Assembly (NCBI RefSeq): GCF_963921235.1
Contig: NC_086097.1
Coordinates: forward strand, 40,612,001 to 40,676,000
Source: Mobula hypostoma
Taxonomy: Eukaryota
Direction of reading: 5' to 3'
DNA: 64,000 bases
Made by a program: the position numbers and the translations under genes. Of this stretch, positions 8,628-64,000 are shown in pieces. The first letter of the stretch is position 1, and each line of letters starts with the position of its first letter. A model generated the notes under the pieces. That model saw only the letters and a program-made list of their open reading frames with translations, made no database searches and was not told the DNA's origin.

Positions 8628-8700
8628 GATTGTCTTACTGTGTCCCCTGGAAAGTCTCTGATGCTTTTGCCTTTGTACAAACACATTGTTTTTCCACACA

Positions 8701-8791
8701 ATGACGAAGGGTCTCGGCCTGAAACGTCGACTGCACCTCTTCCTACAGATGCTGCTTGGCCTGCTGCGTTCATCAGCAACTTTGATGTATG
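8701..8791 (+). mobile_element. Short PLE terminal-repeat insert with hammerhead motif
   Basis: Near-identical to 55153-55246. Perfect 15-bp TSD ttgtttttccacaca (8686-8700 / 8792-8806). Confidence 0.9.
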
Positions 8792-9139
8792 TTGTTTTTC
8801 CACACACCTGATTTTTGCCATCTTTACCTTAGAGCATGATTTACCTTCAAACTCCTTTCTGAGCTGTTTGTTGACTCTGGATGCAATTTCTCCCTTGGTA
8901 TCCCTGATGGCCTGTGATATCCAAGCTCCTGTAGCCCAAGTGCAATCTCATATTAATTCTTGTTACTATCTGTATACTTTGGCTTCTGATCCAGAAAGGA
9001 CTTCAGTTTATAATGTGCATGCATATATTAATATCCTGGATTTTTTCATGTGCTCCTTCAGCCCAAACTGTCTCACATTTGTCTCCTTTAGCACATCAGG
9101 AAAACCAGTTTCTCCCTCTGGAACCCATCTACATTTCTC

Positions 9140-20356: not shown

Positions 20357-20905
20357 CAGTGGATTCCAGTTAATTGGGGCACGTCGGGACTAGTACATTT
20401 TGGCTCAATTAAGAGGCTGCCCAATAGCTGAAGTTTCATTAAAATATTTAAAAAGGTATAAAAAAGACAAACAGTGACAAATTATTATTTAGAAGAAATA
20501 CAGAACAAATTAGAACACCACTGATGCTACCACAGTACTATAAAACTGTATTAGTTCCTAATAGTTATCAGTAGAGGAATTAATTTGTGTATGCTGCCAT
20601 GTTCTTTTGATTGACTGTAAATGAACAAAATCAGTACAGCCACAAGAGGATCTTGGCTAAAATTTCGACTGTTTACTCATTTCCATAAATGCTGCCTGGA
20701 CTGCTGAGTTCCTCCAGCATGTTGTGTGTGTGTGTTACAAAATTAGTACAGACTTCTCGTACAGAACATGGGCTGTCTTCAAACAATGTTTTTCATGATT
20801 ACATCCTCCAAATTTTCATTTTCATTGTAATATTCAAGATGATTTGTCAATGACCTTTAAATTCTTCATAGTTCCTCACATGTTGAAGTAGTAATCATTG
20901 TAACT
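20357..20905 (-). mobile_element. Tigger/pogo-like DNA transposon end with a decayed transposase C-terminus
   Basis: TA then CAGTGGATTCCAGTTAATTGGG terminus. Minus-strand acidic peptide RNYEEFK..HLEYYNENENLEDVI. Confidence 0.55.
20640..20736 (+). mobile_element. Short PLE terminal-repeat insert (degenerate hammerhead)
   Basis: tcgactg..atgctgcctggactgctgagttcctccagcat body. 15-bp TSD acaaaatcagtacag (20625-20639) / acaaaattagtacag (20737-20751). Confidence 0.8.
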
Positions 20906-26220: not shown

Positions 26221-27217
26221 CTTCTTCTCTTCATATATGTAGGAATATCCACTTATTTCAGAAATTAGTCTGAGTTGGGATTCACTGATAAACAGCAGAT
26301 TAAACTTTCTATAGGATTGTTGGTGATGTTTTGTTCGACATGGGAAAACATCCTGTCCTGCTTCAGATGAGCATTATTGAGGATCATAGTAGGTCACATT
26401 GGATATGATTGAAAACATAGAGTGGGGAAAACATTGATTTCTGAGGTTCATTATTCCAGAGAAGATTAGAATGATTTGAAAAGAAAAGATTTTGTTGCTT
26501 AATCTGGTGCTAAGTAGATCAACAATCAACATGAGTGATGGGAGCTGATTACAACAGCAGTGGCATTTTCTCTGTGCAGAAGTCCATGCACTTAGCACAG
26601 GATCCTGAGATACAGCTGATTTGTGAAAGAAATCGATCCATAGAAAAGTAAAAAGAATTTTTCCAGCAATTTCTTGGTTGAACAGAATCACAGGAGTGTG
26701 CAAGTGCAGGTATTGTTCCTTTGGTTCTGCTAGTCTCATCCCTGAAACACTTGTGATTGAAAATAAACCTAAGAACTGAAGATAAATACACTTCCTCTGT
26801 ATTTTAGTATAAAGACAAAGAATTGAGAATATCACATGGAGACATGAGTCTGAAGATGCTGGGATTTTGGCAACACTCAAGATGATTGAGGAACTCAGTC
26901 AGTCAGGGATGTGATGCCTGATTATTCAGTTACTCCAGCATCTTGCTGTTGTCCCACAAATACAACATCTATATTGGGATCTTTTCCAGAATAAATTAAT
27001 AGATGCATACTTGCCCTGCCCACTAGAGGGGGCAGATATAAATGCTTAAAGAAAGGACACATCACTTAGCAACATACATGCAAAGCTGCTATTCTTTTTG
27101 CTGTGTACGAAATGAAAGAGAAGTATGTAGTGTGTACAAAAAATGAACAACTACCTGACCTCTACCCTACAAAGTGGTAACAAAAATAATGCATTTAAGT
27201 ATCATTCAAACATTAGT

Positions 27218-30560: not shown

Positions 30561-32343
30561 TTGAATTGTACCTATTGCGTTAAGTCACATCTTGTCACAT
30601 ATTCACTGTTAAAACTAAGTTTCCTTTTAAAAAGGAGTTTGACTAGTACGTTACCATAAGACCATAAGATATAGGAGTGGATTAAGCTCACTTGGCCCAT
30701 CTCTGGCTCATCCAATTTTCTTTTCAGCACCAATCTCCTACCTCTTCTCTGTACCCCTTCACGCCCTCACAAATCAAGTATCTATCAATCTTTGCCTTAA
30801 ATGTATATAAAGACTTGACCTCCACAACTGCCTGTGGCAAAGAATTCCACAGATTCACCACTGTCTGGCCAAAGAAATTCCTCCTCATCACTGTTCTAAA
30901 AGGATGCCCTTTTATTCTGAGGCTGTGTCCTCTGATCTTAGACTCTCCCACCATAGGAAACTTTCTCTCCACATCCACTCTATCAAGGCTTTTCACCATT
31001 TGATAGGTTTCAGTGAGGTCACCCCTCATTCTTCTGATTTCTGATGAATATAGGCCCAGAGCCATCAAACTCTCTTCCTATGATAAGCTATTCAATCCTG
31101 GAATCATTTGCATGAACCTCCTTTGAACCCTGTCCAGTTTCAGCACATCCTTTCTAAGATAAGGGGCCCAAACCTGCTCACAATACTCCAAGTGAGGCCT
31201 CACCAGTGCTTTATAATATTTCCACATTATACCCTTGCTTTTATATTCTAGTCCTTTTGAAATTAATGTTAACATTGCATTTCCCTTCCTCACCATAGAC
31301 TCAACCAGAAAATTAACCTTTAGGGAATCCTGCACAAGGACTCCAAAGTTCCTTTGCACATCAGTTTGTTTGTATTTTTCTCCATTTAGAAAATAGTCAT
31401 CCCTTTCATTTCTTCTACAAAAGCGTATGACCATACACTTTCTGAAATTGTATTCTATTTGCTATTTCTTTACCCATTCTCCTAATCTGTCTGTCTCTCT
31501 ATAACCTCTCTACTTCCTCAGAACTACCTGCCCCTCTACCTATCTTCATATCATCTGCAAGCTTTGCAACAAAGCCATCAATTGCATAATCCAAATCATT
31601 GATATATATTGTAAAAAGAATTGGTCTCAACACAGACACCTGTGGAACATTACTAGTCACTGGCAGCCAACCAGAAAAGGCTCCCTTCATTCTCATTTTT
31701 TGCCACCTGCCAATCAGCCACTGCTAGTATCTTTCCCGTAATACCATGGGGTTGTAGCTTATTAAGTAGCCTCGTGTGGCACCTTGTCAAAGGCCTTCTG
31801 AAAATCCAAGTACACAACATCAAGCAATTCTCCTTTGTCTACCATGCTTGTTATTTCTTCAAAGATTTCAACAGATTTGTCAGGCAAGATTTTCCTTGAG
31901 AAAACCATACTGACTATGGCCTATTTTATCATATGCCTCCAAGAAACCTGAGACTTCATCCTTAATAATTGCCTCCAACACCTTCCCAACCACTTGGGTC
32001 AGACTAATTGGTCTATAGTTTCCTCCTTCTGCCTCTCTCCCTTCTTGAAGAGTAGAGTGACATTTGCAATGTTTTAGTCTTCCGAAACTATTCCAGAATC
32101 TCGCGATTCTAGAAGGATCATTACTAATGCCTGCACAATCTCTTCAGCCACCTCTTTCAGAATTCTTGGGTGTACACCATCTGGTCCAGGGGACTTATCT
32201 ACCTTCAGAGCTTTCAGTTTCCTGTGAACATTCTCTCTATTTATGGTAACTTCACACACTTCATGACCCCTGACACCTGGAACTTCCACCATACTGCTAG
32301 TGTCTTCCACAGTGAAGATTAATGCAAAATACTTATTCAGTTC

Positions 32344-32483
32344 CAAACAAGAGAAAATTTGCAGATGCTGGAAATCCAAGCAACACACACAAATCAAAAT
32401 GCTGAAAGAACCAAGCAGGCCAGGCAGCATCTGTGGAAAAGAGTACTGTCGACATTTTGGGCTTAGACCCTTCATCAGTACGA
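32344..32483 (-). mobile_element. Short PLE terminal-repeat insert (mutated hammerhead)
   Basis: Reverse complement reads ctgatga agggtctaagccc aaaatgtc gacag. 11-bp TSD ttattcagttc (32333-32343) / ttattcaattc (32484-32494). Confidence 0.88.
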
Positions 32484-33021
32484 TTATTCAATTCAGCTGC
32501 CATTTCGTTATTCCCCATTATGACCTCTCCAGCATTGTTTTCCAGCAGTCCGATATCCACTCTCACCTCCCTGTTACATTTTATGTATCTGAAGTACCTT
32601 TTGGTAACCTCTTTAATATTATTGGCTAGCTTACTTTTCTATTCTGTCTTTACCTTCTTAATGACGTTTTTAGTTGCCTTCTGTTGGTTTCTAAAAGCTT
32701 TCAAATCCTCTAACTTCCCACTCATTTTTGCTCTATTATATGCTCTCTCTTTGGTTCTATGTTGTCTTTGATTTCTCTTGTTAGCAGTGGCTGTCTCATC
32801 TTTCCTTTAGAATACTTCTTCCACTTTGGGATATATATGTCCTATGGCTTCCGAATTGCTTACAGAAATTCCAGCCTTTGCTGCTCTGCCATCATTCCAG
32901 CCAGTGTTCTTTTCCAATGCTAACTCCTCTCATGCCTCTGTAATTCCTTTTACTCCAGTGTAGGACTGATACATCTGACTTTAGCTTCTCCTCCTCACAT
33001 TTCAGGGTGAATTTGATCATA

Positions 33022-41353: not shown

Positions 41354-41490
41354 CCTCAAGATGGAGGGTATTGGTCCAAAACATAACTGCTTATTTCTCT
41401 CCATAGATGTTTCCTGACCTGCTGAGTTCCTTAAGCATTTTTGTGTGTGTTTCTCTGGATTTCCAGCATCTGCAGAATCTCTTGCATTTA
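41354..41490 (+). mobile_element. Short PLE terminal-repeat insert (degenerate)
   Basis: ccatagatgtttcctgacctgctgagttcc..ttccagcatctgcag body. 11-bp TSD tgatgtctgca (41343-41353) / tgatatctaca (41491-41501). Confidence 0.78.
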
Positions 41491-42560: not shown

Positions 42561-43130
42561 TTTCTGCGAGTGAGGGGGTCAGGGACTGTTATTGTCACTT
42601 TTTTTCTGCGACTGAGGGGGTCGGGGACTGTTATTGTGGCTGTATTTTTTTCTGCGAGTGAGGGGGTCGGGGACTGTTATTGTGGCTGTATTTTTTTCTG
42701 CAAGTGAGGGGGTGAGGAACTGTTATTGTCGCTGTATTTTTTTCTGCGAGTGAGGGAGTCGGGGACTGTTATTGTCGCTGTATTTTTTTCTGCGAGTGAG
42801 GGGGGTGATGGACTGTTATTGTCACTTTTTTTCTGCGAGTGAGGGGGTCGGGGGCTGTTGTGGCTGTATTTTTTTCTGCGAGTGAGGGGGTCGGGGGCTG
42901 TGGCTGTATTTTTTTCTGCGAGTGAGGGGGTCGGGGGGCTGTTGTGGCTGTATTTTTTTCTGCGAGTGAGGGGGTCGGGGGCTGTTGTTGTGGCTGTATT
43001 TTTTTCTGCGAGTGAGGGGGTCGGGGGCTGTTGTTGTGGCTGTATTTTTTTCTGCGAGTGAGGGGGTCGGGGGCTGTTGTGGCTGTATTTTTTTCTGCGA
43101 GTGAGGGGGTCGGGGGCTGTTGTTGTTGCT
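42561..43130. repeat. G-rich minisatellite, 13 units of about 40-46 bp, inside a retroposon 3' region (about 42250-43320)
   Basis: Unit ttttttctgcgagtgagggggtcgggg(a/g)ctgtt(a)ttgtggctgta, counted by eye. Confidence 0.95.
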
Positions 43131-44341
43131 TTTTGCTGCAGAGGAAGTTGGTATTTCAGGGTCTGTGTGTATTGTTTCTTCTCTTTTTCATGCCGGGGGT
43201 GGGGAATTGATGTATTTTCTTTTATCAACACCCATGGTCTTTCTGTATTTAATGGCTGTATGGGGTAGACAAATATCAGAGTTGTCTTGTACATGCATAC
43301 TTTGACAATAAAATAAACCTTTTTCTTGGAACCTTTTTGAATGTAATAACTGTGTGAATGTCTGGAAATATCATTTTTTCAGTTCATCAGTGAACTCATC
43401 TGGTATGTCCATTGCTCAGGATGAAACAAAATCATGCCAGCCAGGAAATTTAATTCCTTGTCTGACTGATTAAGACTGTGGACACATAGAAAGGTTATAA
43501 TGCTATAAACCTCCCGTGCTTTTGGACTGGGGATGAAATTCAAGATTTACTGCTTGTGATTACACTCTAAGCAGCTTATGGAAAGTATGTGTGTACATGC
43601 ACAGATATTATGTGATTCATTTCAAGAGTGCAGTATCTCAATGTCTGAGGTCACATGTCAAGAATGCATAGAATGCCAGACTGCAGTTAAGGTGCTAGAG
43701 AGCAGCTACTACATGTAAGCTAGTACCTATGGGAGAGGAGTGGAAGATGATTCATAGGTATAGAAGGAAATGATGCCAAGGCAAAACTTGAGAATAGGAA
43801 TTAAGTTCTTATTTATTCTTGCTTTCTACTAAGTTAAAGCACATTTAAATATTATCTACTGCAATTCCCTGGGCTCTTTTGACAGGAATATGTCTAACAT
43901 TTGCAGATGAAGAGAAGTATTTATAATGAAATTGCCAAATCAAAATTAAATTTTTAGGTAATCTTTGCCACGATGACATTTTGTGAATCTTGTCCTTGAG
44001 CAGTGTTATCTTCAGAGTATTTCATATATTTTTTCGGTCCACTCGAACCTCCTGGCTTCAAGTGTGAATCTAGCATTTTCTGGTAATGAACTTGACTGAA
44101 ACATGGATGAGTTATGTCAATTTTTTTTTGTTGCAGCTGACTATCTTGCCCTGTGGGGTTGGAACTGATAGTATGTATCATCTTCCTGTAAAATTGGCAC
44201 TGCATATATTAAAAAATAGCAAATACATCTTTTGCTCCATCCCTTCGCTCCAACCTTTTTATACTAGCTGTCTGTCTTCTCTATCTTTCCATCTGGATGA
44301 ATGGCCTTGACCCAAAGTGTTGACTGTTCATTTCCCTCCAT

Positions 44342-45684
44342 GAATCAGAATCAGGTTTTTTATCACATGTGATAGCATGTGATGTGAAATTTGTTAACTT
44401 GGCAGCAGCAGTTCAATGCAATATATAATAAAGAAGAAAAAACCAAAATAAAATAATAGTAATAAATAAGTTAATCAATTACAGTATATGTACATTGAAT
44501 AGATTAAAAATTGTGCAAAAAAACCAGAAATAATATATATTTAAAAAGTGGGGTAGTGTCCAAGGGTTCAATGTCCATCTAGCAATCGGATGGCAGAGGG
44601 GAAGAAGCTGTTCCTGAATCGCTGAGTGTGTGCCTTCAGGCTTCTGTACCTGCAACCTGATGGTAACAGTGAAAAAAGGGCATGCCCTGGGTGGACGCTG
44701 CCTTTCTGAGACATGGATATTTTGGATATCCTGGGTACTTTTAGACTGGTACCCAATATGGAGCTGACAAAATTTACAACCATCTGCAGCTTCTTTCGGT
44801 CCCATGCAGTAGGCCCCCCCCCCCCCCACTGTACCAGACAGTGATGCAGCCTGAAAGAATGCTCTCCAGGTTACATCTATAGAAGTTTTTGAGTGTATTT
44901 GTTGACATACCAGATCTCTTCAAACTCCTAATGAAGTGTAGCCATTCTCTTGCCTTCTTTATAACTGCATCGATATGTTGGGAGCAGGTTAGATCCTCAG
45001 AGATCTTGACACCCAGGAAGTTGAAACTGCTCACTCTCTCCACTTCTGATTCCTTTATAAGGAATGGTATGTGTTCCTTCATCTCATCCTTCCTGTAACA
45101 TCATCAAATTTATAGATGGTATTTGAGCTATGCCTAGCCACACATTCATGTGTATATAGAGAGTAGAGCAGTGGGTTAAGTACACACCCCCAAGGTGCGC
45201 CATTGTTGATCGTCAGCGAGGAGGATATGTTATCACCAATCCGCACAGATTGTGGTCTCCCGGTTAGGAAGACAAGGATCCAATTGCAGAGGGAGGTACA
45301 GAGGCCCAGGTTCTGCAACTTCTCAATCAGGATTGTAGGAATGATGGTATTAAATGCTGAGCTATAGTCAATGAACAGCATCCTGACGTAGGTGTACGTG
45401 TTGTCCAGGTGGTGTAAAGCCGTGTGAAGAGTCATTGAGATTACATCTGCCATTGACCTATTGTGGCAATAAGCAAATTGCAATGGGTCCAGGTCCAGGT
45501 CCTTGGTGAGGCAGGAGTTCAGTCTAGCCATGACCAACCTCTCAAACCACTTCATCACTGTCGATGTGAGTCATACCGGGCGATGGTCATTCAGGCAGCT
45601 CACATTATTCTTCTTAGGCACTAGTATAATTGTTGTCTTTTTGAAGCAAGCAGGAACTTCCATTTGTAGCAGTGACAGGTTGAA
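44342..45684 (-). mobile_element. Rex1/Babar LINE inserted in a PLE terminal repeat (about 44290-44341 and 45685-45765)
   Basis: ORFs 45079-45558, 44774-45082 and 44568-44783 carry Rex RT motifs. (GATTCT)n tail at the left end. The PLE ccat|gatgctccctgacc rejoins across the insert. Confidence 0.92.
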
Positions 45685-45904
45685 GATGCTCCCTGACCTA
45701 ATGAGTTCCTCCAGATTTTTGTGTGTTTCTCCAGATTTCCAGATTTCCAGCATTTACAGTCTCTGATGCCTCTAATACATTACCTTCATTGGTTTCTTTT
45801 TGCTTTTTGTTTGAAAGAATGTGGGAAGGATGCAGATATTTTAAAGATGAATTATGGTTCACCATGTTTTAAAAAAAAGATTTGGAAATGATTGAGAATA
45901 TTAA

Positions 45905-46085
45905 AAACGCAAACATGAGGAATTCTGCAGATGCTGGAAATTCAAGTAACACACATCAAAGTTGCTGGTGAACGCAGCAGGCCAGGCAGCATCTCTAGGA
46001 AGGGGTACAGTCGACGTTTTGGGCCGAGACCCTTCGTCAGGACTAACTGGAAGAAGAGCTAGTAAGAGATTTGAAAGGGGGAGGG
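45905..46085 (-). mobile_element. Short PLE terminal-repeat insert with hammerhead motif (46008-46045, G12 changed to A)
   Basis: Reverse complement reads tagtc ctgacga agggtctcggccc aaaac gtc gactg. Perfect 11-bp TSD gagaatattaa (45894-45904 / 46086-46096). Confidence 0.92.
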
Positions 46086-48749: not shown

Positions 48750-49275
48750 TTAGTTTATTGGTCTGTGGTCGCCACCAATGTCACAATGAGGCCATCTCAT
48801 GTTAGAGGAATAACACTTCATATTCTGCCTGGGTAGTCTCCAACTAGTTGGCGTGAACATCACTTTCTCTAATTTTGTTAATTTCTTCCCTCTCCCCTTT
48901 TCTCTTTGTCCCTTCCCCATTATAGTTCCTGTCTTACCCCTTCTTCTCATCTGCCCATCACCTCCCTCTGGTGTTCATCCTCCTTCCCTTTCTCCCATGT
49001 TCAACTCTCCTGTCCTATAGCTCTTTGCTTCTTTCACCTATCTTCTCCCTTCATCCCCCCTCACCCCACCTACCCATCTTCCCCCTCACCTGTCTTCACC
49101 TATCGCTTGCCAGCTTGTACTTCTTCCCCTCACCCCACCTTCTTCCCCCTTCCCAGTCCTGATGAAGGGCTGAAACATCAACTGTTTCTTCCTCTCCATA
49201 GATGTTACCTGGCCTGCTGAGTTTTCCAGCTCTGGGTTGTTCTGGGTTTACAGCATCTGCAGGATCTCTTATGTC
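48750..49275 (+). mobile_element. Older PLE 3' fragment (GIY-YIG C-terminus, 3'UTR, terminal repeat)
   Basis: LEE*HFIFCLGSLQLVGVNITFSN matches the end of ORF 54287-54856. Hammerhead relic cagtcctgatgaagggctgaaacatcaactg at 49154-49184. Confidence 0.82.
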
Positions 49276-49654
49276 ATTTAATTTGTTAGTTTCAACCCAT
49301 TCAGTTAACGATTGGTGTGATAGCTACATATTCTCAATGGGAAGTTCTGCACACCAGTGAGATTATAAATCATGGTTAGCAAAAATAAGATTAGTTGATC
49401 TTTGTTCAGTGATGCTTGTTCTTCAGGAAGTCATTTTGATATGGAGTATCTACATAGCAACTTATTTAGCTAGATTAATCTTCTCAAAACATTGGGTCCC
49501 AGCATTGACCTGGAATAGCACTATTCACGGATCTTCCTGTTGACCCGTTCAGAAATAGATCACATGATCTGGAAGGCTGTTTCATGGGCTTCCCATGGAA
49601 ATCCCACAAGCGATACATTGTTGGATGTCACAGTGAATATTGGGCTTCCTTATA

Positions 49655-49930: not shown

Positions 49931-52900
49931 GTTAATTGATAGACAGGAAGAGATAGATGTACAGAATGAGAATAGCAATTACTGTACTATAACCCTGATT
50001 TTCCTTCATGATAAACTTTTCATAGAAATTGAATCACATTGGACTGGAAAGTGGCATTACACGATTTAACTTCTGGGCAACTTTTTGAATAAATTACTTT
50101 GCTCTCAAGTTCACTGGTTGCTGTGTGTCACCTCCGACCTCTTGACTGACTGAATTGTGGACAGAAGGTACTCTGCTTGCATTAGAACATGTCCACTTAA
50201 TAGGTTATCAGTTGAGTAACCAGGCAGCATATTTGAGAGAGGCCTCCACATTCACTCTGTGGTGCTGAAGCACCTGATCTCATCTGGACTAATGGTGCCA
50301 ATATTGCTATTAGGATCAGCACCTCTTGAATTAATTACCATGGAGTACAAGCTGAAATTGGGTTTGGGCTCTGATAAGTAATTGACATACATTATTGAAG
50401 CTATTATATTGATGGCCTTTTGGACAAAAGTGCCCCAATTGCTTTAAAGTTACCCACAATTTTGTGTGATATTGTGCATCGGTAACAAATGGCAAAGCTG
50501 CTGTCCTCAAATGTTTAAGAAGTGTTTGCTTAATCTGCAGTTTGAAATACAATTGAGAATGGCTGTTTATTATAATTATCCTTTGTAGCAGTGGCTGTCA
50601 GCATGGTGGTAAGTTAATGAAACCATTACCTCATTATATTCTTTAAATTTGAATTCCTTAATCTTGGTAAACCCTAATTCACTACTCTTTATAAACCACT
50701 ATGTGCAAGTATGGTAAATTTTGACAGTTTTGGATGTCTTCAGCGTTTTGCATGTAGTATTGAGTAAATTGCTAAAAATTAGAAACAGAAGGTATTCTAT
50801 GTAATAGGTTCTTGGTTTCATTACTATGAACACAGTACAGGTGGCAAATGAGGATTGATCAGGAGAGGTCTCTGATGGTGTGCTCTTTAATTGAGAGTGA
50901 TGTAATGGAAACTTGATGAAATAAAATGTGCCCCAAACACACAAGGAAGGTGTGTAATGAAAGGAAAGGATTTTAACTCATCCACCTGAACTGGTTCAGA
51001 AAGGAAAATGTGCACAGATATTCTTCATAGAGATTCAGATTTCAAACAGAACCATCTCTTCATTTTATCATCAGCCAAATCTCTTGATTTTATTTAAAGT
51101 ATAATAAAGAAACGAGAGTTTGACTGAAACCATGGTACATGAGTACCATTGTTATTCGTGGCAATAAATGACTGCTGAAGAGAAAATGCAGCAGGATCCA
51201 GAAATGACTGTAAATATTTATTTGAATGCTTGACTAAGAAACATGATCAAATTGTGATTTTTTTTTTAAAAAGTCAGAATATAAGAAAAAAGGTGCTGAT
51301 TGCTTGCTGGAAGGCCATTTTACAGCATCGTCCATATCTTCTTATTCCCTAAATATTTCAATCTATTGATCTCTTTTTCTAATGAACATGTTGAGCCTCT
51401 ACAGCCCTCAAGGTGGAAATTTCAAAGATACACTATCATCTGAGTCAAAGTGTTTCTTTATCCAATCCTAAATAGTCTATTACTTTATCTGAGACTTGAC
51501 CCTGCTTCTAGACTTAAGGTAGGAGATACATCCCCCATGCATCCAGCCTGTAAGATGTCACAGAAATCTACAGGAATGTATATGTAGGCAGATTATGAAC
51601 AGAGTAGTTGTAGCCGCTGACTTTAATTTCCCAATAATGACTAGGATCCTTGTCTTCCAGACCAACATACAGAAATCAACAAAGATAGGGAGCAAGATCC
51701 CTGCCACGATTATTCTAAACACTAGTGCTTCACATGACGGAGCCCTCAGCTCAATACTCTATGTGTGACAATACTGTAATAAACTAATTCTAATTCTAGA
51801 ACTCCCTAGCATCAAAGACGTGGATGGGGTAGAAATTGTCATATTCGTCTCTGGGGATCTGACCAAGGAATTGACTATACTAGACCTTTTATGGGGAAAT
51901 AAGCTTGATGTCTCAGTGGGAGAGCATTTTGGGAGCCGTGATAATAACTCCTTAAGTTTTCACATAATTATGGAAAAGGATAAGACTCGCCTCCAGCTGG
52001 GGGTAAGGAAGGGTGGAAGCATTGAGTGCACAATTAAATAAAGGCCAGTTACTAGAGTATTAGGCAGGAACTGTGGAGAATAAACTGGGAGCAGCTGCTA
52101 CTGGGTAAATCACTGTCTGATTTGGTTAAAGGCTCATTGGTCAGAATTTTGTGTTGTTTCATGTAGCACTAGGGTCCTGCAGGAACATTGTTTCGTTTTT
52201 ACTGTGTACTGTACCAGCAGCTTATGGTCGAAATGACAATAGGCTTGACTTGAGTTGAATTAAGTACTAACTTATTCCTGTGAGGGATCAAAGATGATAA
52301 TGGCAAGGTTTCGTTAAACTGGATGACATGGGGTTGCAGGTTTAAATAAAAAGAAAGGTTTAGGAAGTTAAAGTTGGACAAGCCCTTTCTGAAATGTAAA
52401 GGAAGCAGGAGGGCTAAAAGAGACTATAAAATGTCTTTGGTGAGTCAGGTTAGAGAGAACTCCAAGGTAAATTAAAAATGAGGGTAATCAGGAGATCAGT
52501 CTGGAGGGTAAAGGAGGGAACTTGTACCTGGGCAGCACACACACAAAATGCTGGAGAAACTCAGCACATCATAGAAACATAGAAAACCTACAGCACAATA
52601 CAGGCCCCTCGGCCCACAAAGTTGTGCCGAACATGTCCCTACCTTAGAAATTACTGGGGTTACTCATAGCCCTTTATTTTTCTAAGCTCCATGTACATAT
52701 CCAAAAGTCTCTTAAAAGAATTTTATTCTAAACTTTATAGTTCTGATCTTCGTAAAGATAGTACTGTAATGGATAATTTTTTAGACCAAATAAATATCCC
52801 TACGCTTGCTGTTGATACCCGAAAACAGTTGGACCAATGTATTTCTCACGTAGAAATTGCCGAGGCTGTACGTTCACTGCATTCAGGGAAAGCTCCAGGT

Positions 52901-54330
52901 CCTGACGGATTTTCTGGAGAATTTTATAAGGCTTTTTCTTCTTTGCTTATACCTCATTTATGTTCAGTTTTTCCAGATTCTTTTAAGTCAGGTAGGTTGC
53001 CACAATCTTTTACCGAAGCTTCTATTTCGCTTATCCTCTTTTAAAAAAAAATAGAATCCAACTGAATGTTCTTCATATAGACCAATTTCCTTACCTAATG
53101 TTGATGCTAAAATTCTATCTAAAATTCTGGCCCGTAGGATGGAAAATATCTTATCATCTATCATTTCTGACGATCAGACTGGTTTTATTAAAAATCGATA
53201 TTCTCATTTTAATATTCGTGGATTATTAAATGTTATTTGTTCTCCTTCTAAGGAGATATTGGAGTGTGTGATATCCTTAGATGCTGAGAAGGCTTTTGAT
53301 TGGGTTGAATGTCATTATTTATATAAAATCTTAGAAAAATTTAATTTTGGGTCCAACTTTATTCAATGGATTAAATTACTGTAATTATCTCCTTTTGCTT
53401 GGGTTCTTACTAATTCTCAGAATTAAGTTTAAATCATTTAAACTTAAACATGGAACCAGACAAGGTTGCCCTTTGAGTCCTTTGCTTTTTGACCTGGCTT
53501 TAGAACCTTTAGCTGTTGCTTTTTGAGAATCTAACGATATCACTGGTATTTTACAGAAGTTTCACTTTATGCGGATGATTTATTGCTTTGCGTTTCTAAT
53601 GTCGAAACTTCGTTACCTTCTGTGCTTTCTTTACTCTCTTTTAGTCAGTTTTCTGGATATAAACTGAACCTACACAAGAGTGAACGTTTTCCTTTGAATA
53701 ATTTGCCAGTAAATGCTATTAACCTTTCTTTTAAAATTGTCAGAAACCAATTCACTTATTTGGGGGAAACAATTACTAAGAATTATAAATACCTATTTAA
53801 AGAAAATTTTCTTACTTTATTAAATTATATAAAAAGAACATTATCAAATTGGTCCCCCTTTCATATGGAAAAATGAATGTCCTCAATTGAATAATGTCCA
53901 TCTCCAAAAAGTTAAAAAGAATGGAGGTTTAGCTTTACCAAATTTTAGGTTTTATTACTGGGCAGCTAATACACGGAATCTCACGTTTGGTTATACTATA
54001 TTAATCATGAGGATTGTCCCAGGTGGGTTTCTTTAGAAGTTAACTCGGTTAATAAAGTTTCTATTATTTCTCTCTAGGGATCTTCACTTCCTTTATCCTT
54101 AAGTAAGATAACTGAAAATGTGGTAGTCAAACATACTTTGTGAATTTGGATACAATTTAGAAAACTCTTTGGTTTATTGCGATTCTCCCTTTCTAGTCCC
54201 ATTTTTAAAATTATTTTTTAAGCCTTCTATGACTGATGTTTTTAAACAATGGGAAAGATTAGGCATTACATGTTTCTGGGATCTGTTTGTTGGATGAAGT
54301 CTTTCCTCGTTCAAACAATTGTCAACTAAA

Positions 54331-55247
54331 CCCACCACTAAGCACATCTTCCCCCCCCCCTGCATTCCGCAGGGATCGCTCCCTACACAACTCCCTTGTC
54401 CATTCGTCCCCCCCATCCCTCCCCACTGATCTCCCTCCTGGCACTTATCCGTGTAAGCGGAACAAGTGCTACACATGCCCTTACACTTCCTCCCTTACCA
54501 CCATTCAGGGCCCCAAACAGTCCTTCCAGGTGAGGCATCACTTCACCTGTGAGTCGACTGGGGTGATATACTGCGTCCGGTGCTCCCGATGTGGCCTTTT
54601 ATATATTGGTGAGACCCAACACAGACTGGGAGACCGCTTTGCTGAACATCTACGCTCTGTCCGCCAGAGAAAGCAGGATCTCCCAGTGGCCACACATTTT
54701 AATTCCACATCCCATTCCCATTCTGACATGTCTATCCACGGCCTCCTCTACTGTAAAGATGAAGCCACACTCAGGTTGGAGGAACAACATCTTATATTCC
54801 GTCTGGGTAGCCTCCAACCTGATGGCATGAACATTGACTTCTCTAACTTCCGCTAGGCCCCACCTCCCCCTCGTACCCCAGCTGTTACTCATTTTTATGC
54901 ACACATTCTTTCTCTCACTCTCCTTTTTCTCCCTCTGTCCCTCTGAATATACCTCTTGCCCATCCTCTGGGTCACCCCCCCCGTCTTTCTTCCCGGACCT
55001 CCTGTCCCATGATCCTCTCGTATCCCCTTTTGCCTATCACCTGTCCAGTTCTTGGCTCCATCCCTCCCCCTCCTGTCTTCTCCTATCATTTTGCATCTCC
55101 CCCTCCCCCTCCAGCTTTCAAATCCCTTACTCACTCTTCCTTCAGTTAGTCCTGACGAAGGGTCTCGGCCTGAAACGTCGACTGTACCTCTTCCTATAGA
55201 TGCTGCCTGGCCTGCTGCGTTCACCAGCAACTTTGATGTGTGTTGTT
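54331..55247 (+). mobile_element. Young 5'-truncated Penelope-like element (Neptune-type) with an open GIY-YIG endonuclease frame ending at 54856
   Basis: PCKRNKCYTC zinc-finger linker, GVIYC..CxxC..YIGET..R..EH, and PDGMN terminus. Pyrimidine-rich UTR and terminal repeat. 14-bp TSD aattgtcaactaaa (54317-54330) / aattgtcaagtaaa (55248-55261). Confidence 0.95.
55147..55184 (+). ncRNA. Minimal type-I hammerhead ribozyme motif
   Basis: Stem I TAGTC/GACTG, core CTGACGA (55152-55158), stem II hairpin (55159-55171), GAAAC (55172-55176) and GTC cleavage triplet (55177-55179). Stem III is reduced to the palindrome ACGT. Confidence 0.85.
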
Positions 55248-56490
55248 AATTGTCAAGTAAATATAGTTTACCAAAAACCCATTTTTTTCGGTACTTACAA
55301 ATTAGAGATTTTCTGCGATCTCAATTATATACATTTCCTAATAGTCCTGATAAGAATGTATTAGATGAGATTCTTAATATGAAATCATTTTATAATGGTT
55401 CAATATCCAATATTTATGATATATTGTTGAGAATGAGAAATAATTCTTTAGACAAAATCAAAAATCTTTGGGAACAAGATTTACAGACCTCAATCTCTGA
55501 AGAAACTTGGAATGAGATTTTTAAATTGGTTAATACTTCATTGTTATGTGCTCTTCATTCCCTCCTACAATTTAAAGTGGTTCATAGGGCTTATATGACC
55601 ATAAGTTATCTGGTTTTTATAGGGATATATCTCCCTACTGTGATAGGTGTAACAATGGAGAAGCTTCATTTATTCATATGTTTTGGACATGCCCAAGTCT
55701 TCGAAAATATTGGAAGGAAGTATTCCAAACTTTTTCTGTTCTCTTTAAAGTAAATTTTAAGCCTAATCCTTTGACTGCCCTATTTGGTATTGTTGGAACG
55801 GAACATATCATTTTGAAGACATCTGATCTGCACCTTCTGGGTTTTATCTCTCTTATGGCTAGGAGAGCGCTTTTGTTTAAATGGAAGGATGCTGTCCTGC
55901 CTAATCATGCTGTGTGGTTATGGGATGTTATGGCATGCCTAAATTTAGAAAAGATTGGTTGTTCAATTTCTGAATCTAACCAAGATTTTCAAAATTTGTT
56001 GGGGTTGTTTTAAAATTATTTTCATGATCTTTGACTTCTTGTTAAAGTACAGAAGTTGGTTAATAGCATATTATATTATCTGATAAGTTTTTTCTTCTTT
56101 TTTCCCCAAACAGCTTTGACTTTGATAGTGGGTGTAGATCTCTTTTTTAAATAAAATTGTTTATATTCTAATACATGAATTAATCTAATCTATATGAATA
56201 TAGAGTAAGGAGTTTGTTAATGTGATTCAATATACTGTATCTGGTATTATATTTTTTCTTTTGTTTTAATTCTGTATTCTCTTGGATTCTGTATTCTTCC
56301 ATATAGAAATCAATAAAAAAAAATTGGAAAAGAAAAAATAAAGATCCTATTTTATCCACCTCCACCATTGTTGCTGGCAGCCCAGTCAATCCACTCACCA
56401 CTCTCTGTGTAAATAAATAAATAAACATTGAAAAACTTACCCCTGACATCTACTCTGTACCTACTCCCAAGCACCTTAAACCTGTGCCCT

Positions 56491-57450: not shown

Positions 57451-57694
57451 AAAAGTACTTCAAGTAACGCCTATGGACATGAGTGAACAGTTGATGTTTC
57501 GGGGCAAAACCCTTCATCAGGGGATGATGAAGCTACATCCTTCTTTCATTCGATTCCTGATAAAGGGTCTTGCCGTGAAAGGTTGACTGCCTATTCTTTT
57601 CCATAGATGTTGCCTGAACTGCTGAGTTCCTCTAGCATTTTGTGCGTGTTATCTCTAGATTTCCAACATTTGCAAAGTCTACTGGATTTCTAAT
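57451..57694. mobile_element. Inverted pair of PLE terminal repeats (the minus arm continues at 52533-52568)
   Basis: Minus-strand hammerhead relic at 57488-57524 and plus-strand relic at 57553-57589. Candidate TSD ttgtacctgg (52522-52531) / ttatgcctgg (57695-57704). Confidence 0.78.
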
Positions 57695-63252: not shown

Positions 63253-64000
63253 TTTAAAGTTCAAAGTAAATTTTATTATCAAAGCACATAAATGTCACCA
63301 TTTACAATCCTGAGATTCTTCATTTTGTGAGCATTCTCAGCAAGTCTATAGAATACTAATTGTAACAGGATCAAAGACTGACCGTCCAACTAGGGCACGC
63401 AGCTTGAGTACAGAAGGCAACAAACTGCGCAAATGCAAGTATAAATAAATAGCAATAGATATCGAGAACATGAGATCAAGGGTCCTTGAAAATGGGTCCA
63501 CTGGTTGTGGAATATTTCAATGATGGCACAAACGATGTTGAGTAAAATAACACACACAAAATGCTGGTGGAACGCGGCAGGCCAGGCAGCGTCCTATCGG
63601 AAGGGTTACAGTCGATGTTTCAGGCTGAGACCCTTCGTCAGTACTAACTGAAAGAAGAGATGGTAAGAGATTTGGGAGGGGGAGGGGGAGATCTGAAATG
63701 ACATTGTTCAAGAGCCTGATGGTTGAGGGGTAGTACCTGCTCTTGAACCTGGGTGTATGAATCCTGAGACTCTTGTACCTTCTACCTATGATAACAATGA
63801 GAAAAGAGCAAGACTTGGGTGGTGGGGATCCTGAAGATGGACACTGCCCTCCCACGGCACTACTTCATGTAGATGTGCTCAATAGTTGGGAGGGCTTTAC
63901 CTGTGTTGTAAGGGCCGTATCCACTACTTTTTGTAGGACTTTCTGTCCAAGGGCATTGGTGTTTCTATTCCAGACTGTGATATAGCCAGTCAATATACTC
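63253..64000 (-). mobile_element. Rex/Babar LINE 3' part running off the window edge, with a PLE insert at about 63548-63700
   Basis: GRRYKSLRIHTPRFKSRYYPSTIRLLN. The PLE insert carries the hammerhead relic tagtactgacgaagggtctcagcctgaaacatcgactg on the minus strand at 63609-63646. Confidence 0.85.

Follow-up and report, generated by a model that had tools for sequence, protein, structure and literature searches.

The window, that is, the whole stretch of DNA analysed, comprises 64,000 nucleotides of Mobula hypostoma (contig NC_086097.1, positions 40,612,001 to 40,676,000 of the forward strand). It is repeat-rich animal DNA with many LINE fragments and a GC content of 35-48% in 2-kb bins. Two long copies of the 3' end of a Penelope-like element (PLE), and the hammerhead motif carried by the first of them, lie at the following positions:

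54331 to 55247, plus strand: 5'-truncated PLE of 917 bp, with the linker and GIY-YIG end, the 3' UTR and a complete minimal hammerhead
55147 to 55184, plus strand: complete minimal type I hammerhead motif, stem I pairing 55147-55151 with 55180-55184, core from 55152
48796 to 49280, plus strand: older long PLE end, with the last codons of the GIY-YIG ORF, a pyrimidine-rich 3' UTR, the hammerhead and the tail

The 917-bp copy is flanked by a target-site duplication (TSD) matching at 13 of 14 positions (54317-54330 and 55248-55261); its ORF stops at 54854-54856, and its 3' UTR is pyrimidine-rich and about 290 nt long. Its host is a decayed L1-like element at 52700-56300 (RVT_1, E 7.6e-17). The end of the ORF matches GIY-YIG at E 1.4e-4, with 22.5 bits against a cut-off of 22.6, and the translation of 54263-54856 includes a CX4CxxC linker. 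A CX2-5CxxC linker before GIY-YIG is a mark of the Neptune and Nematis clades (PMC8557442). By its linker and GIY-YIG, as translated, the parent is a predicted EN+ PLE of Neptune/Nematis type. There are 15 longer homologues of this ORF end; a protein labelled Mobula hypostoma is 93% identical, and several long matches labelled Hypanus sabinus are 75-83% identical. Of two relatives scanned for RVT_1, one (P0006) has a hit that falls short of the cut-off (E 9e-5) and the other (P0001) has no hit. The window copy ends before the RT, and the window holds no RT domain of the PLE family. The older long copy has a 7-nt deletion in the hammerhead, and its ORF end is found by tblastn at E 8.5e-6. A 12-bp repeat with one mismatch (48874-48885 and 49282-49293) has its left copy at the end of the PLE ORF; the copy at 49105 may represent a second insertion, into another copy where its ORF meets the pLTR, unless the repeat is due to chance.

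The motif at 55147-55184 has an extra unpaired A, a 3-bp stem II, GAAA, a palindromic ACGT and a predicted cleavage site after 55179. We number positions from C3 of the CUGANGA box (55152 in this reference copy), which puts cleavage at +27 and the first 3' end at +93. The motif resembles the minimal type I hammerheads of metazoan PLEs (PMC4209133) in its core boxes, in the unpaired base after A9, in a helix I of 4-5 bp, in a palindromic helix III, and in occurring mostly as a lone motif in truncated copies. It differs in helix II, which here has only 3 bp with a 6-nt loop, whereas the Schistosoma motif has 7-8 bp. The full pattern (CUGANGA, GAAA, UH and helix I) is matched by 3 of 11 copies, with 3-4 helix I pairs. 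Across the 11 copies 69% of the helix cells are paired, against 24-41% when the helices are slid, and helix II reaches 91%; there is no two-sided change and no excess over shuffles. The folds of the hammerhead region are no stabler than shuffled sequences either (z from -1.30 to +1.14 in seven folds), and Rfam at its gathering score reports no hammerhead in the window. A scan with the family pattern gave one chance match in viral contigs, none in prokaryote genomes and, in metagenomes, first none and then 114 chance matches; none of these spans the element.

With a family profile derived from nine of the window's copies, 14 pieces reach E < 0.001 in the window and none does in the reversed window, which served as control. 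Four short copies start at the hammerhead core:

8686 to 8700, plus strand: left TSD of the 8701 insert, 15 bp, exact
8701 to 8791, plus strand: tiny PLE end, an extra A and then +1 of the core to the first RT start
8792 to 8806, plus strand: right TSD of the 8701 insert, its first three bases also matching the 3' end of the element
20640 to 20736, plus strand: old tiny PLE end, start about +4, no tail extension
32344 to 32483, minus strand: tiny PLE end with tail extension, start -5, TSD 10/11
41354 to 41490, plus strand: old tiny PLE end with tail extension, start about 0, TSD 9/11

The 8701 insert has 91 bases between TSDs that agree at 15 of 15 positions, and it is without C3 and without the 5' strand of stem I; 8702-8796 is 95% identical to 55153-55247 of the 917-bp copy. 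The start of the 20640 insert is uncertain by a few nucleotides (microhomology with the target), and its TSD matches at 14 of 15 positions (20625-20639 and 20737-20751). The insert at 32344-32483 interrupts a CR1-like LINE whose frame is continuous across the insertion site. A chance match has a probability of about 2% for the 9/11 TSD of the 41354 insert, against 0.2% for 10/11. Five of the TSDs are 67-82% AT, compared with 59% for the window, and the sixth, a weak one, is 55% AT. None of the tiny inserts has tail sequence 5' of the core. The CTGANGA box is kept in one of the four (the copy at 32483) and the full motif in none, so that the name of hammerhead inserts, under which the original prediction had presented them, is too strong, and most of the tiny copies are probably dead as ribozymes. 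In being incomplete, these motifs differ from the minimal type I hammerheads of PMC4209133. On the minus strand of 32074-32487, in the 32483 copy, a frame covering the entire insert begins with an ATG inside the core, a codon that reads ACG in the young subfamily; the ORF of the anole element likewise starts at stem II.

The other copies in the window are as follows:

44230 to 44341, plus strand: 5' half of an old PLE end that is split by a LINE, probably reaching some 60 nt 5' of the core, its 5' limit being uncertain
45684 to 45766, plus strand: 3' half (tail) of the same copy, beyond the LINE
45905 to 46085, minus strand: young PLE end with tail extension, start about -47, TSD 11/11
63548 to 63700, minus strand: PLE end without tail extension and without TSD, start about -62
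57459 to 57693, both strands: head-to-head PLE ends, minus arm 57459-57522 (-1 to -12), plus arm 57533-57693 (about -22)
26846 to 26970, both strands: head-to-head old tail-only pieces, starting near +45 to +48, 3' of the cleavage site
52532 to 52566, minus strand: tail fragment, its 5' part removed by the end of a LINE

The original prediction had named seven of these inserts, four of which (8701, 20640, 32344 and 41354) do begin near CTGANGA, as it said. The fifth, at 44290, has neither CTGANGA nor a detectable TSD; its core is preceded by about 60 nt rich in pyrimidines and weakly similar to the PLE 3' UTR, and the copy is not clearly a member of the core-starting cluster. Of the two that had been placed 40-55 nt further upstream, the one at 45905-46085 starts at about -47, and the one at 63548-63700, in a host LINE with a 5-nt gap, begins at around -62 and lacks a TSD. 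TSDs of 11-15 bp, which had been claimed for five inserts, are confirmed in 8701, 20640, 32344, 41354 and 45905, and all the named inserts span the predicted cleavage site. The named inserts are real, and the list was incomplete: it left out the 917-bp copy, the long copy ending at 49280, the 57459-57693 pair, the tail-only pair and the fragment at 52532-52566. At the head-to-head junction (57459-57560) a short palindrome at 57512-57532 repeats part of the core on both strands, and it may record a fold-back of the cDNA. In the tail-only pair, the minus arm has E 2.5e-5 and the plus arm is weak (E 2.5). The window also has a tandem array at 42561-43147 (12.8 copies of a 46-bp unit, 88% matches), which is unrelated to the hammerhead repeat.

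The copies have two alternative 3' ends, one at +93 and one about 40-45 nt further 3'. The tail extension is present in three of the seven named copies and in the 45684 half; none is seen in 8701, 20640 and 63548, and the 44290 copy is split. In contigs from two sequencing runs, X1 and X5, loose ends at 55244-55245 number 655 and 569, and their consensus begins with the tail extension. The variable 3' end is the optional PLE tail. As for kinship, 8701 shares 95% identity with the 917-bp copy and 91% with the 46085 copy; with the remaining three tiny inserts the figure is 62-71%. A tree of 10 copies, some 100 columns long and weakly supported where the old copies are concerned (28-66), rejects forced monophyly of the four tiny inserts (delta lnL 35.8, AU p = 8e-8), so the tiny inserts arose more than once, from subfamilies of different age. 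The discrete non-autonomous unit that had been suggested fails on the same test, with short copies interleaving with long ones in the window tree, an outcome that the original prediction had itself counted among those refuting it.

We conclude that the inserts are very probably 5'-truncated copies of the terminal repeat (pLTR) of endonuclease-bearing ray PLEs, belonging to at least two subfamilies of different age. For each insert, longer copies bearing the end of the GIY-YIG gene have a homologous 3' end, and the earlier proposal that the PLE RT/GIY-YIG machinery made them holds. The mechanistic steps are borrowed from PAc, a Poseidon-type element of a lizard, Anolis carolinensis, whose protein nicks AT-rich DNA and whose RT starts inside uncleaved RNA at either of the sites that bound the tail (PMC11167929). 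In the ray, the RT would start 3' of the cleavage site, at a distance of 66 or about 110 nt, copy through the motif and end early, and second-strand synthesis would leave the TSD. The hammerhead would be found in every copy because the motif adjoins the priming site. Like PAc, the inserts have a tail, delimited by two 3' ends, immediately 3' of the hammerhead, lie in AT-rich targets and include copies that span the cleavage site; PAc belongs to a different PLE clade. They share with the described insertions of EN+ Neptune and Nematis PLEs (PMC8557442) a C-terminal GIY-YIG, a CX4CxxC linker, a hammerhead in the terminal repeat, heavy 5' truncation, an optional extension and inverted 5'-truncated arms, the extension being about 40-45 nt here and 30-40 nt in those PLEs. 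Truncation alone, however, does not predict a cluster of 5' ends, and tailed and untailed copies share a 5' endpoint although their lengths differ by about 45 nt.

On the side of the core the 5' ends are at +1, about +4, -5, about 0 and -1 to -12 (the inverted arm, entered as -6); the remaining ones are at about -22, -47, -62, about -65, about -385, -821, and about +45 and +48. The 52532-52566 fragment is excluded from this set, as a LINE cuts its 5' side. A single 11-nt interval holds 5 of the 13 ends, 4 of 9 when the inversion arms are removed, and 3 of the 5 that are strictly anchored by a TSD. The scan-statistic p, computed for 36 ways of combining copy set, detection limit and length model, ranges from 0.004 to 0.36, and from 0.004 to 0.11 at detection limits of +55 and +40, which match the pieces of 35-60 nt that the profile found. 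That four of the nine non-inverted copies start at -5 to +4 has p of about 0.01-0.25 depending on the model; the other five read through past the edge of the core. The cluster in the window is suggestive, not proven.

We also aligned contigs of four runs to 54860-55249 at 90% likeness, with 121,979 and 61,336 contig records in DNA-like runs of two organisms and 3,824 and 4,237 in RNA-like runs. At 55148 (-4), loose ends occur in 125 of 1,931 partly aligned contigs of X1, 128 of 1,734 of X5 and 26 of 197 of X11; these figures are among the rows listed (24 of 905), and some loose ends are uncounted. Of the six rows listed for each DNA run (X1 and X5), -4 alone is a 5' loose-end place exceeding 25 contigs; among the rows listed for X18, none is at -4. 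The loose letters at -4 have median lengths of 135 and 192, low agreement (0.35 and 0.36) and A-rich far letters. Simulations, which assume a way in which agreement is computed, fit at most 5-10 nt more of the PLE followed by genomic flank, and long upstream arms (0.44-0.51) do not fit. Position -4 is also where the second subfamily stops matching the reference. The simulations make most loose letters genomic flank, which tells against a pile that is purely a subfamily boundary; contig fragmentation still selects such junctions. A smooth distribution of endpoints could give a pile of equal size, and ordinary ends anywhere between about -4 and -25 may add up in the pile, because contigs reach -4 only from nearby junctions. 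Less exposed to this fragmentation bias are the go-back joints of the hammerhead region with 1-5 letters between, of which five of seven fall at -5 to +8 among the joints listed (12 of 101), at -4, -4, -5, 0 and +8, the others being at -15 and +47. The contig analysis lists no place where many molecules begin or end. Relative to the core plateau, depth is 0.47 (X1) and 0.35 (X5) in the bin at -80, and 0.30 and 0.31 in the bin near -220; contig depth is not a copy number, private differences of the reference at 55114-55140 lower the bins just before the core, and we did not use depth as evidence. In two RNA-like runs the depth of 55211-55223 over 55172-55184 is 2.3 and 1.8, and it is flat in the DNA-like runs (0.96 and 0.95); such depth shows neither the start of an RNA nor its level, and one abundant transcript could cause the RNA-like rise 3' of the cleavage site.

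In our judgement it is evenly balanced whether 5' ends are truly in excess at -5 to +8. The absence of any hotspot, to which we give a little less than even chances, would mean that a cluster is mimicked by three things together: a steep surplus of short copies, a floor of detection for those that begin 3' of the core, and the picking of copies by their hammerhead. A short-copy model gives p of 0.04-0.11 at limits +55 and +40, and 0.20-0.36 at +10; the 44290 copy drops out, copies at -22, -47, -62, about -65 and +45 to +48 fill the surroundings, and the clustered ends spread over 10 nt with no listed place of many molecule starts or ends. Set against this are the endpoint shared by tailed and untailed copies, the direct go-back joints (five of seven at -5 to +8, among those listed) and the single-exponential models, with p of 0.004-0.028. 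In a literature search that covered mostly papers open without subscription, we found none on a 5'-end peak at a PLE hammerhead or on this ray PLE family.

If the excess is real, the likeliest cause is that the RT primes in an upstream pLTR and runs off where the PLE RNA has its 5' end, near -4. YYANWYY is the initiator consensus, and (Y)nAG the splice acceptor consensus. The RNA would start at an initiator-like site at -4 in the upstream pLTR, and internal priming at the tail of that pLTR would end in run-off after 90-140 nt, with strong-stop-like inserts in every subfamily as the product; those that keep -4 might be transcribed again and behave as SINE-like units. This cause, possible yet on the unlikely side when taken over all outcomes, is compatible with the explanation by truncated PLEs. 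It agrees with the -4 pile in X1, X5 and X11, with loose letters unlike long upstream arms and with the go-back joints listed at -5 to +8 (five of seven), and YYANWYY with its A at -4 is present in both subfamilies. Published in vitro work has priming internal on RNA that spans the pLTR-ORF junction, with product length tracking the template's 5' end, and the promoter of Penelope, internal to its pLTR (PMC2377424), also counts for run-off. On the other hand, -4 doubles as the match boundary of the second subfamily, the pile may be a sum over about -4 to -25, and X18 has no -4 row among those listed. YYANWYY is moreover common (12.5 per kb, 7 in the 390 nt aligned) and serves here as stem I as well, and the D. 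virilis start is further upstream, separated from helix I by 46 nt plus a 75-nt intron (PMC2377424, PMC4209133). A bolder proposal, which we regard as improbable though worth stating, is that the cluster is a fossil map of the PLE RNA start: run-off at -4 would give strong-stop-like mini-inserts in every subfamily, and copies that keep -4, with the start and the RT landing sites, would spread as SINE-like units of 90-140 nt, seeding pLTRs and retrozymes without ribozyme cleavage.

Unlikely, too, is an RT stop just 5' of the ribozyme, caused by the C/U tract, by a hairpin at 55142-55155, by pairing of the tract with GAAGGG (stem II) or by a protein bound to a splice-acceptor-like (Y)nAG site at -2. 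The endpoint data fit such a stop as they fit run-off, the hairpin appears in two folds of the reference copy, and a pyrimidine tract with AG lies immediately before the core in both subfamilies (55125-55151 and 49125-49157); the intron of D. virilis Penelope ends at the 5' end of helix I (PMC4209133). Against it, the folds are no stabler than shuffles, five of the nine non-inverted copies read through, and none of the skip joints listed (15 of 52) has GT..AG ends at -2. Stalling at the folded ribozyme, which the original prediction had offered as one cause, does not survive: the RT moves along the RNA from 3' to 5', and the fold would block it at +28 to +41, so the ends at -5 to +5 are on the wrong side, with the motif already copied, and those folds are no stabler than shuffles.

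Turning to the template, the earlier argument that it was not cleaved at GUC stands, and the circular or multimeric RNA offered as one form of it finds no support, there being no tandem in the window and head-to-tail joints amounting to about 1% of 3' ends in the DNA contigs. The cleavage site is spanned by every copy longer than about 66 nt, the 917-bp copy included, so spanning it is not special to the tiny inserts. Uncleaved RNA is the dominant PLE substrate in vitro, and hammerhead mutants insert normally (PMC11167929); for a single minimal hammerhead no cleavage was seen, and most of these motifs stand alone in truncated PLEs (PMC4209133). The template to assume by default is therefore linear and uncleaved. 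A single hammerhead is not enough for a circle, which takes two in tandem, and the missing joint at the cleavage site is no test of circles because religation is seamless. Splicing of the template finds no support, no TSD-flanked insert carrying a foreign 5' exon.

A discrete retrozyme-like unit, with the PLE protein copying a religated circular or multimeric RNA, is thus highly improbable. PLE-derived tandem retrozymes are reported in one chondrichthyan (bioRxiv 10.64898/2026.07.22.740005), a circular template has been proposed for PLE tandems (PMC4209133), and head-to-tail joints do occur in the DNA contigs: 55245 to 55157 (5 in X1, 3 in X5), 55245 to 55132 (1 and 2) and 55238 to 55152 (X1). 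These joints are about 1% of plain 3' ends among the joints listed (15 of 52), however, and both 55245 joints have no contigs in the two RNA-like runs. The commonest, 55245 to 55157, lacks C3-G5, so a unit made from it cannot cleave. The window has no tandem hammerhead unit, and the tiny inserts are polyphyletic, with the full motif in none of four. The head-to-tail units of 114 nt (55245 to 55132) and 89 nt (55245 to 55157) are rare and occur in both organisms. The 114-nt unit (three contigs) would keep the full motif, and there may be a small number of retrozyme-like dimers, which did not give rise to the tiny inserts. Tandem hammerheads are the criterion for retrozymes (bioRxiv 10.64898/2026.07.22.740005; PMC7761336). 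In the same two sources, the non-LTR retrozymes of metazoans are, like the inserts, non-coding, with type I hammerheads, kin to PLE pLTRs and dependent on PLE proteins; they are tandem, with at least two complete hammerheads and circular RNA, whereas the inserts are single, incomplete and polyphyletic. Being neither tandem nor a separate family, the inserts are not non-LTR retrozymes.

As it stands, the finding is ordinary, one more set of truncated PLE ends. If a sharp peak at -5 to +8 holds genome-wide, it would show where the RT of PLEs ends in vivo, and possibly where PLE RNA starts. A true peak would also bear on the origin of pLTRs and retrozymes, and on the role of the hammerhead in PLEs.
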